Origin: a virus
Lineage: Duplodnaviria > Heunggongvirae > Uroviricota > Caudoviricetes
DNA length: 31,691 nucleotides
Reading direction: 5' to 3' (one strand)
Virus record (IMG/VR): IMGVR_UViG_2778261559_000026
Positions 3,901 to 6,900 of the stretch are shown in pieces. The position numbers are program-made. Each line of letters starts with the position of its first letter. Position 1 is the first letter of the stretch.

Positions 3901-6900
3901 CGTAGGAACGATCTTTAGCCAGTGCATTGATATTGAAAATTTGCTGTGAAGTCTGTCCCAGCTTAATCCAGTTAGGTGATCCACTCACTTTGTAATCAAT
4001 CTGGAAACCGTAGCGGTTGAAATCTTCCGGTGCATCCCATGTCAAAGTTACGTTTTTACCGTGGATTGTCTCACCAGTTGCCTTAATTCTGAAATTAGTC
4101 GGTTTCTGTACTGTCATTGAATCCGGTAAACCAGTAGGTCTATTGTCTGGATTCGCCGCATAGTTCAGGTCAGTATAAACCTGAGAATTATATTCTGTGG
4201 CGGTGATAGTCATCATCCCAGCAATACCAGAATCAATAGAGCGATCAATTGCAGTAATACGCCAAAGTGAATTATTCAGTTTTAATTCATCATAGGTTAC
4301 GCTAATAACATCCCAAACTTCGGCAGTGAATGCGTCAGTAGTCATAAAGCTGATAACCTGAGTGATACGAGATTTATTTCGTTCTACACTCGCGAGTTTA
4401 TCAATCTGGGCTTTAGACTTAACAAAACGATATTCAATATCTTTAGCGATAATTCGACCATCTTGACGAATAGTAGCATCGTTTTCAGCATCAGCCGGAT
4501 AACGTAGCATTTGCTCGGAATAGTCGATTGATGGTTCTTGATACATCGCGTTAATGGTATTGAAATAACCGTTAGTGCCACCTGTTTTCAGTGATACCTT
4601 ACCCATCATGATATTGTCTTCATTGAAGGTATGCTTAACAATATCAGGAGCATCCAGTTTCAGGGTAATTCTTCCGAAGGATTCGAACATCACCCCGCCG
4701 AAAGTCTGCATGAGATTAGTTAAGTTCTCTTTAAAGCTGGCGTTCGGATCACATGCACCGTTTGAATGCAAATCCATCTGGCGTACTTGTTTACGTACTT
4801 TCAGGAATGAATCAACGTTGATGTTTTCAATTGGTACGGATAAGCCATATTTTTCATTTGTTAGGTAGTGGAAAATCTGGTCCACGCCGTTAGTGCTAGC
4901 CTCAATAGCATTAGTTTCAAGGTTACGAATCTTTAAGCCCATAACATCGACCGCTACCTGGCTATTTGGTTGAAGGATATCAACACCAGCAACCAAAGAT
5001 TTGTCATCACGACGTAAAACAATACACATGGTCGCAATGCCGTTACCCTGATACCGATCATCCCAATCTGCGCCCAAATGATGTTTAGCCAGATCTAATG
5101 CAGTGTTAGGATTTTTACCAGTGCGAAACTCGACTTCTAAAACTTTGCGATACTCGTCTTTAATGTTTCCTTTATCGAGAATGCCATCACGAATTGTCAT
5201 ATTCTGGCTAATGAGAACGTTTTTATTATCGATGTGCAGTGCTTTAAAGTGATCGATCTCACCTTCGGCAATAGCAAAAATTTGTACCAGTTTGTTGTTT
5301 TCACGCTGTGAAATTGCTTTGTAAACGCAGATTGCACCCGTGCGGGTAGTACCGAAAAGAACGGGTAATACTGTCTTAGGATCGTTTGATGTTCCTAGTG
5401 TCACCGCATTATCTGGGCTTTGTACTTTCGGTGTTTTTGGTGCGCCTACAGTGGAAGCGATCAAGGTCATTGCACCAGCAGCCATACCGATAGCGACTGC
5501 GGTCATAACAGAAAATGTTGCGGCTGCCGCCATCCCCGCCGAAGCACCAGCGATCACCGCGCCTACCAATATTTCAAATCCCATTATTCACCCCCGAATC
5601 TATAAACTTGTTCATAGTCAATGTCTGAAACAGGAATGGTCATCCAGATACCATCTTCTTCAACGAGGCCATAACCGGAATAATGAGGAACTACGGAATA
5701 ATATTTGCGGTTTCCTAATTTGTGGGCTGTGACCAGTAAGTCGCCGTCCTGTAAATCATCAGTGACTAATTTGAAATGTTTCTTAATTGGTTGAAGGATA
5801 TTTGTGTATCCGCTTAATTCTTTGCAGATTTTCAAGCCTTCTTCTTTAGTTGAATATTTTTTATAAAGAGAATTATATAGGTCAGTACCAGCGAGAATAT
5901 CGATTATCTTACATGCAATTATATTGCAATCATTCTCGCCTTGAACGAACTCCTGACCTATTAAAGAATTGATGTAATCGGTGATAAGCCTAGTTTTTAG
6001 CATGTTGAATACCTCCATGCTGTTATTTACTAGGCTTAGGGAGAAGGGATTATTTCTTGAAGTCTTCGCACATTCTACGAAGATCATATTTTGGATGGCC
6101 TAAGCCAATCATGATTGTTCGTAATCTTGCCGCGCCGGGCTTACCGTTTTCGATCCACACACGACGAATTTCATCGTAATGTTGCCAACATGCTTGACCT
6201 TTCGATTCCCTAATTGCTTTAGTTCTGTTAGCCTTTTCTACAGGATCGGTAATCTTTCGACCAGATAAAGCCTTACTAATTCTTGCGCGTGTTTCTTCGG
6301 TGACTATTGCGCCGTATCGAGGATTATTAGCGCCTTTCATTGCAGCGGACATTTTAGCTAACGTTTCTGGATTAGTTATCTTCCTTCCTCGTTTTGGGCT
6401 TACCCGTCCAAACATCGGGTTTCCTTCACCTGCGTTGTTCTTTCTAAATTTCTCGATTGTTTCTGGCTTATGTTTCTTTCCGTACAGTGGGTGATGTTCA
6501 CCACCATCAAAACCACCGACACCACCAAGAGCAATATTAAGACATACACCACGCCCCCATTTTTCGCGTGCTGCCTCCACTAACAGAATTTCACATTCAA
6601 ACGCTTCCTCGGCAGTATCAAACAATTTTGAGCGAACAACTTCAAATTCATATATCGGGGTTTCTGATTCTTTATTTTTACGCTTCATCATTTTAATAAC
6701 TTTACCCGACCCCACATATCCATCGTCTAGATTTGTAGTTGTTCTTTTTCCGACGTAATGATAGATTTTACCAGAGCGATTAGATTTAATAGTGGTGTGA
6801 TAAACGTAATGGAATTTTCGCATATAGGAAAGCCCTCAAAAATAAAGAATCTCTCCTATATTTATTGAGGGCTTTGGTGTGCCATTTAGTTTCAGTATTA

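Follow-up and report, generated by a model that had tools for sequence, protein, structure and literature searches.

A probable free-standing GIY-YIG homing endonuclease cassette occupies the end of a tail hub gene in a minority of Escherichia coli and Salmonella prophages

Is an endonuclease-like gene that lies inside a prophage tail operon a mobile intruder, or is it a working part of the tail? We addressed this question with a 31,691-nucleotide stretch of DNA, IMG/VR virus record IMGVR_UViG_2778261559_000026 (hereafter, the window), which is a temperate, siphovirus-like prophage of Escherichia coli and in which an initial annotation, made from the sequence alone, had recognized a Seg/I-TevI-like homing endonuclease gene (HEG) in the tail gene cluster. 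Our comparisons of alleles and protein families indicated that this segment is probably a free-standing GIY-YIG homing endonuclease cassette of the Seg/I-TevI type, which would spread by homing. The data showed the cassette to be dispensable, site-specific, intact, and neighbour-sparing, and to be present in a minority of two diverged prophage lineages.

Filled and empty alleles were compared in the loci that were read, 28 from E. coli and 13 from Salmonella. The HEG was present in 6 of the 62 complete E. coli genomes carrying the tail module; 13 HEG-lacking alleles were read base by base, and the other non-carriers were recognized by a two-piece alignment with 72-74% query coverage. In each of the 13 alleles, the stop codon of the upstream tail gene (encoding a baseplate hub-like protein; Table 1) is followed by a 46-bp spacer and then by the start of the downstream DUF6950 gene. 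The insert sits in the last codons of the hub gene and is bracketed by an imperfect direct repeat with identity at 9/10 positions. On the coding strand, empty alleles read ...TCATCG AAG AAA TAA TCCCTTC..., and filled alleles read ...TCGTCT AAA AAA TAA, followed by the leader and the open reading frame (ORF), which ends as ...GAC TTC AAG AAA TAA TCCCTTC.... Because the insert brings a new Lys-Lys-stop, the hub protein is unchanged, and because the endonuclease ORF ends on the resident Lys-Lys-stop, the 46-nt leader and the Shine-Dalgarno sequence (GGAGG) of the DUF6950 gene are unchanged as well. In other E. coli and in Salmonella, homologues with as little as 54% identity lay at exactly this position, and the Salmonella-type modules included both filled and empty alleles with the same junction logic. 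Since the ORF is absent from most syntenic modules, it is a dispensable 848-bp insertion and not a conserved structural gene. The comparison with modules lacking the insert thus upheld the proposal of a selfish insertion into a syntenic tail operon through the exact junctions of the filled minority; the end first assigned to it (6894) was close to the real boundary, although the insert actually spans 6059-6906. No intron or other RNA family was detected by Rfam at threshold anywhere in the window.

These presence/absence data bear directly on the idea that the ORF is a tail structural or assembly component merely resembling an endonuclease. The gene does have the same orientation as the tail operon around it, but it is missing from 56/62 related E. 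coli modules and from Salmonella modules that keep all neighbours, its product combines a nuclease fold with DNA-binding repeats, and no tail family was matched. Relatives lack the ORF and keep the syntenic operon, and by these presence/absence data the possibility of a conserved structural gene raised in the initial annotation was effectively refuted; we assign it a negligible probability.

The bracketing repeat bears on a different reading, in which the ORF is an ancestral resident that was precisely and repeatedly lost and is immobile. Its product would then be a DNA-binding protein, decaying or domesticated, or else a nuclease that serves some other function. The gene lies at the identical place in lineages of E. 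coli and Salmonella with flank identities of only ~75-78%, which is consistent with such a history, as is the name 'NUMOD3 DNA-binding protein', which is all that PGAP gives the product, and the 9-of-10 repeat could mediate deletion. The ends of the empty alleles, however, were AAGAAATAA in 11/13 E. coli and in the Salmonella-type loci L053-L058, and AGAAAATAA in L059/L060; a carrier-type hub end (AAAAARTAA) or a hybrid of both repeats was found in none of the empty alleles read, which argues against (repeated) slippage deletion between the repeats. In addition, degraded copies numbered 0/15, the catalytic-motif residues are conserved, and carrier status was uncorrelated with flank haplotype. 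Loss of an ancestral resident is, on this evidence, very unlikely.

The identity of the encoded protein was supported by several families and profiles. Pfam matched NUMOD3 over four stretches (E-value, 1.3e-15), PHROG 314 and 655, both 'homing endonuclease', were matched as well, and PADLOC assigned the protein to generic 'HEase' models and nothing else; in E. coli DEC5A, PGAP names it 'NUMOD3 domain-containing DNA-binding protein'. A family profile, built as an alignment of 45 relatives from a large protein database, matched the I-TevI catalytic domain (1LN0, E-value 3.4e-9; 1MK0, E-value 1.9e-7) and the I-TevI DNA-binding domain (1I3J, E-value 7.8e-4), with Y8, Y23, G25, E78, and N96 aligned to I-TevI Y6, Y17, G19, E75, and N90. 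Among the 45 relatives, E78 and N96 were invariant and Y8, Y23, and G25 were kept in at least 90%; 23/45 matched Pfam GIY-YIG and 21/45 matched SegE_GIY-YIG. The AlphaFold model computed from the same alignment had a predicted local distance difference test score (pLDDT) above 90 over residues 1-100 and a beta-beta-alpha-beta-alpha order, forming a three-stranded sheet flanked by helices that was superimposable on known GIY-YIG domains, and presumed DNA-binding modules of the sequence-tolerant type (NUMOD repeats and, probably, a helix-turn-helix-like module) were joined C-terminally to this nuclease. The basic residue after YVGK is R27 (His in relatives), and the first helix is Lys-rich. A phmmer search of the HEG protein against PDB sequences returned only a chance match to an MBP fusion, and hhalign with the close family alone against I-TevI was uninformative (probability, 6%; alternative register; Arg27 equivalent not placed). 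Collectively, we conclude that the HEG protein joins a GIY-YIG nuclease to NUMOD3 repeats and to a helical tail that resembles DNA-binding modules, an architecture of the Seg/I-TevI kind. The four NUMOD3 stretches, the PHROG homing endonuclease families, and the I-TevI profile matches thus agree with the first assignment of a free-standing Seg/I-TevI-like enzyme, and the proteins annotated as 'NUMOD3 domain-containing DNA-binding protein' in these genomes are to be read as GIY-YIG endonucleases.

All 15 copies examined were intact, and pairwise ratios of nonsynonymous to synonymous divergence (dN/dS) ranged from 0.04 to 0.40 for pairs with dS of at least 0.1; as judged from these codon comparisons, the HEG product is selectively maintained. 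The gene is ~80% identical in nucleotides between E. coli lineages, and the flanks of the same lineages are 94-99% identical. The copies in the window and in ETEC1703 had 98% identity and a dS of 0.015 in the nuclease domain, and 54% identity with saturated synonymous sites in the NUMOD3 region (proportion of synonymous differences [pS], 0.74); amino acid identity of the NUMOD3 region between E. coli lineages was 47-54%. The divergence pattern was reversed in two Salmonella copies. The HEG copies are thus mosaics produced by recombination, with breakpoints near the domain borders. Positive selection on the NUMOD3 region was considered and set aside, as dN/dS above 1 is not demonstrable at a pS of 0.74; with its synonymous sites saturated, the divergence of this region therefore reflects the exchange of old alleles.

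A second kind of variation was found on the target side, in the 16 codons that end the hub gene, immediately before the insertion site. Among the 13 HEG-lacking E. coli alleles, nucleotide diversity (pi) in this 48-bp segment was 0.229 and 13/13 haplotypes were distinct, compared with a median pi of 0.022 and four haplotypes in the other 34 intervals of 48 bp over 1.7 kb, where the next-highest pi was 0.063. Across the 28 E. coli loci, pS and the proportion of nonsynonymous differences (pN) were 0.51 and 0.17 in these codons, and 0.134 and 0.003 in the rest of the gene. The variants included many multi-base synonymous swaps (AGG/CGT for Arg, TCG/AGC for Ser) that were combinatorially shuffled, and some were common to E. 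coli and Salmonella alleles; the Salmonella-type modules had the same diversity peak at the hub-gene end. The first 480 bp downstream of the insertion site were quiet. No fixed flank differences between carriers and non-carriers were found outside the repeat, and divergence between the groups equalled that within them. An 'immunity' recoding of carrier flanks was also considered and rejected, since the synonymous differences at the junction lie inside the insert boundary or are polymorphic in both groups.

The initial annotation had also remarked that the gene is preceded by its own hairpin. A strong hairpin is indeed present in the leader (minimum free energy [MFE], -23.8 kcal/mol; z-score, -4.7 in a 76-nt context and -3.5 in a 121-nt context), with 0/200 shuffled sequences as stable. 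It is part of the insert and is kept in all copies, with one compensatory change from a G-C to an A-U pair in Salmonella. It is not peculiar to the HEG, however, because a near-twin precedes the distal-tail-protein gene (start 8111) at 8114-8159 on the minus strand (MFE, -25.6 kcal/mol; z-score, -7.6), formed by AAAAGCCCCC...GGGGGCUUUU followed by CUAUG, with an A/T-rich loop containing ATAAATA and a G-rich Shine-Dalgarno sequence in its 3' arm. GC-rich hairpins were also seen in the late intergenic regions upstream of 11282, 11835, 15352, 16965, 19121, and 21183. Sequestration of the ribosome-binding site in a hairpin is a documented control of T4 I-TevI, I-TevII, I-TevIII, and segB and of Aeh1 mobE (PMC2988022). 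In a scan for sigma-70 promoters and terminators over 5500-7700, no promoter-like site was found, and no terminator-like site was found at the hairpin.

The selection and hot-spot data and the promoter scan are where a carrier-benefit explanation has to be weighed, in which the enzyme is kept mainly as a competition or exclusion nuclease against superinfecting relatives that lack the insert, with homing as a by-product. The gene is intact and under purifying selection even in a prophage unable to form particles, the hypervariable target-side segment in non-carriers looks like escape, and PADLOC counts the 'HEase' models matched by the protein as defence-associated. Set against this, ~90% of related prophages do without the HEG, the region offers no promoter-like site for lysogenic expression, and the HEG Shine-Dalgarno sequence is buried in the hairpin. 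This explanation largely overlaps with the homing cassette; as the principal reason for the enzyme's persistence, we regard it as improbable.

The homing cassette that we favour could operate as follows. A carrier and an insert-lacking related phage or prophage would come to share a cell through superinfection of a lysogen, co-infection, or induction in a polylysogen. The HEG would probably be read from the late tail-operon transcript, and the leader hairpin, by burying the Shine-Dalgarno sequence, would keep its translation low. The enzyme would bind a long asymmetric site, which probably lies near the 3' terminus of the hub gene, either at the empty junction or slightly upstream, and would make a double-strand break in the empty allele. 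Repair from the insert-bearing copy would then carry the cassette, along with a little flanking sequence, into the genome that was cut. T4 free-standing endonucleases often cut in a neighbouring gene, away from their own insertion site (PMC2988022), a habit that agrees with a target in the hub-gene 3' end. Repeated cutting, escape, and patchy repair or short co-conversion from diverged donors may have produced the 48-bp hot spot, and the shuffled DNA-binding region might be the enzyme's side of the same process. A bolder extension is an arms race in which non-carriers recode the last 16 hub codons and the enzyme swaps NUMOD3 modules, combined with an exclusion role in lysogens, even defective ones. 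Non-carriers would then diversify largely by synonymous multi-base recoding and patchwise conversion, and the enzyme would keep a near-identical nuclease domain and exchange whole NUMOD3 modules to follow its targets. We hold this extension to be possible but rather doubtful.

Several observations weigh against the homing cassette and temper our confidence in it. Cleavage, the target site, and homing were inferred, and none was directly observed. The HEG protein itself misses both PF01541 (GIY-YIG) and PF19835 (SegE_GIY-YIG), even at an E-value of up to 1, so that the proposed GIY-YIG/NUMOD3 pairing stood for NUMOD3 by Pfam and for GIY-YIG by family profile and fold; we read this miss as a sensitivity limit of single-sequence hidden Markov model scoring, because the profile and fold tests pass. 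The Foldseek support was weak (E-value, 0.16), and the profile alignment sets I-TevI Arg27 opposite an acidic loop, with no equivalent placed. The hairpin may be a general 'house style' of the operon and not a control of the endonuclease. Diversity of similar magnitude occurs in the tip gene ~700 bp downstream (~4300-4900), and the hot spot could be a tolerant or variable protein tail or an unrelated recombination boundary. A near-isogenic pair of carrier and non-carrier was not found, the best pairs differing at 40-63 positions over 2.25 kb, and therefore no recent gain is documented. Finally, the prophage copy in the window, which has lost 4.9 kb, is unable to spread as a phage.

Among known systems, the T4 SegA-G enzymes and I-TevI are the closest. 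The Seg enzymes are likewise encoded by free-standing ORFs between conserved genes, optional among relatives, and built from an N-terminal GIY-YIG domain and a C-terminal DNA-binding region. Seg-like ORFs of T4-like phages have 28-32% full-length identity to the HEG of the window, the SegE_GIY-YIG matches in the family (absent from the window protein itself) point the same way, and the leader hairpin over the ribosome-binding site recalls that of segB (PMC2988022). In contrast to the T4 Seg enzymes, the HEG resides in a temperate siphovirus-like prophage, beside tail genes and not DNA-metabolism genes, and its insert extends over the final codons of the gene upstream, whose stop codon is put to new use. 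Nor can a T4 late promoter be claimed: the T4-late-promoter-like AATAAATA of the hairpin loop is no more frequent than expected by chance, with 39 one-mismatch matches to TATAAATA found and 53 expected. By sequence profile, I-TevI of the T4 td intron is the top match of the catalytic and of the DNA-binding domain alike, and it has the same modular order of nuclease, linker, and DNA-binding region. The HEG differs from it in not lying in an intron, as the flanking genes are uninterrupted in both allele types, and in having no zinc-finger match; identity between the two proteins is ~12-17% in structural alignments. For the anti-phage GIY-YIG nucleases (e.g., PD-T4-3), PADLOC indicated no family membership, and the similarity to 9u75 is at the level of fold only.

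The initial annotation held such a gene to be less expected in an integrated element. A 2006 survey (Dunin-Horkawicz et al.) found bacterial homologues of GIY-YIG homing endonucleases mostly in prophages, including the proteins of an 'HEase cluster' that, like the HEG, combine GIY-YIG with NUMOD and lie beside phage structural genes (PMC1564403). That expectation was thus only mildly true: prophage homologues have been known since that survey, but no relative of this lineage with more than 60% identity was found among 50,697 sequenced phage records. The nearest homologue outside the prophage clade was 34% identical and came from a metagenomic contig, where its neighbours encode, by Pfam, a type II topoisomerase subunit, an exonuclease, and a dCMP deaminase; this neighbourhood may be a replication module recalling those of T4-like phages. 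GTDB species-representative genomes were scanned twice, once using the hub protein and once using the alignment of the HEG family, and neither scan yielded anything that was confirmed. To our knowledge, nearly all work on free-standing homing endonucleases has concerned virulent T4-like phages. Several temperate-phage papers already report homing endonucleases. The cassette is thus an element of an ordinary kind whose natural setting is well documented, and its value is the cleanly mapped natural variation. The 2006 survey left insertion sites, empty alleles, and target-side variation undefined (PMC1564403), and all three are mapped here. One lineage in temperate E. coli and Salmonella prophages now has exact filled and empty alleles and many target-side variants mapped together, and several natural versions of the enzyme have a common nuclease domain and different DNA-binding regions. 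The set offers a ready panel for studying how GIY-YIG enzymes retarget, and for asking whether local hypervariability in prophages, and the exchange of genes between them, are driven by homing endonucleases.

Table 1. Coordinates of the cassette, its gene, and the adjoining features in the window
Feature	Position	Strand	Evidence and remarks
Insert absent from HEG-lacking alleles, 848 bp	6059-6906		Alignment with empty sites of ETEC4085 and 12 other E. coli; exact boundary ambiguous inside the 10-bp repeat
Left repeat copy, ATTATTTCTT	6049-6058		Coding strand AAGAAATAAT, the resident Lys-Lys-stop now used by the HEG; junction comparison
Right repeat copy, ATTATTTTTT	6897-6906		Coding strand AAAAAATAAT, the insert-supplied Lys-Lys-stop for the hub gene; same in Salmonella
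HEG, 257 aa	6050..6823	-	ATG 6823..6821, stop 6050..6052; ORF list; PGAP in DEC5A; PHROG 314/655; PADLOC HEase
GIY-YIG nuclease domain, aa 1-103	6515..6823	-	Y8, Y23, G25, E78, N96
Linker and NUMOD3 repeats, aa 104-200, presumed DNA-binding	6224..6514	-	Pfam NUMOD3; profile match to 1I3J; highest divergence within the gene
C-terminal helical domain, aa 201-257, probably a helix-turn-helix-like DNA-binding module	6053..6223	-	
RNA hairpin in the HEG leader, 47 nt	6829..6875	-	3' arm with Shine-Dalgarno GAGGG at 6833-6837, 9 nt before the ATG
Hypervariable 3' end of the hub gene, 16 codons	6907..6954	-	Borders the insertion site on its upstream side; candidate zone of recognition/cleavage or co-conversion
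Upstream tail gene, DUF2163/Gp84_N-like baseplate hub N-terminal domain, 217 aa	6898..7551	-	Pfam PF09931; PHROG 2048 'tail protein'; PGAP
Downstream tail gene, DUF6950	5584..6003	-	Pfam PF22262; ATG 6003; GGAGG 6012-6016; leader sequence

The HEG thus lies between two tail genes, as first described, namely the hub-like (DUF2163/Gp84_N) gene and the DUF6950 gene, within the tail operon and in the same orientation. A tail-tip (J-like) gene lies past the DUF6950 gene, and the distal-tail-protein and tape-measure genes lie beyond the hub gene. The reported 38-bp overlap of the HEG with the downstream gene did not hold, as it arises only when the longest ORF (ATG 6087) is used; the real arrangement is a 46-nt gap. 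The ATG at 6003 is the start common to filled and empty alleles, is used by PGAP, and lies nine bases past GGAGG, and an identical 420-nt coding sequence of DUF6950 is annotated in HEG-bearing and HEG-lacking alleles; in the empty alleles, the longer reading would start within the hub gene on unrelated sequence. The longest-ORF start of the DUF6950 gene is therefore an annotation error. In E. coli ES2 (L007, 2085-2618), PGAP gives this gene the long start, with a 68-nt overlap with the hub gene, which is the same longest-ORF artefact. In the tip gene, diversity over ~4300-4900, beginning ~230 bp inside its 5' end, was 0.07-0.19 per site both between and within groups.

The prophage itself could be placed by comparison with complete genomes. 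Positions 5000-8200 of the window match E. coli O55:H7 DEC5A and FDAARGOS_946 with 100% identity, and the IMG/VR prophage contig IMGVR_UViG_2526164662_000045 is 100% identical to the window over 2053-10823 (8,771 bp, the part read). A near-identity DNA search of 4500-8500 against the 50,697 phage records gave no match; the tail module is known from prophages only. In DEC5A, the annotated prophage has a serine-type recombinase, lysis genes, and head and tail genes, and it abuts a truncated hicB near ydcR, which suggests that a large serine recombinase may have integrated the prophage into hicB. At the left prophage edge (window ~900-1056 and 1..822), the adjoining gene in the DEC5A annotation is the truncated hicB antitoxin gene beside ydcR. 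The window lacks 4,936 bp present in DEC5A, and the deletion junction at 3827/3828 joins a truncated serine-type recombinase gene (2537..3949, plus strand) to the interior of the tail-tip gene (3785..5584, minus strand). This junction was identical in IMGVR_UViG_2526164662_000045 and was found in 0/5,426 complete E. coli genomes. Because the deletion removed genes of the lysis/endolysin region, most of the tip gene, and the recombinase C-terminus, the prophage of the window is defective, and any action of its endonuclease, should it be expressed at all, would therefore be limited to relatives entering the cell. In the insert carrier E. coli 14EC017 (L005, 1755-2452), IS1A interrupts the tail-tip gene, another sign of in-place prophage decay. 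Elsewhere in the window, a gene for a 1,142-aa 'tail fiber domain-containing' protein (11924..15352, minus strand) lies between the head genes and the tail-tube gene, and the major capsid gene (17115..19121, minus strand) is unusually long, encoding 668 aa.

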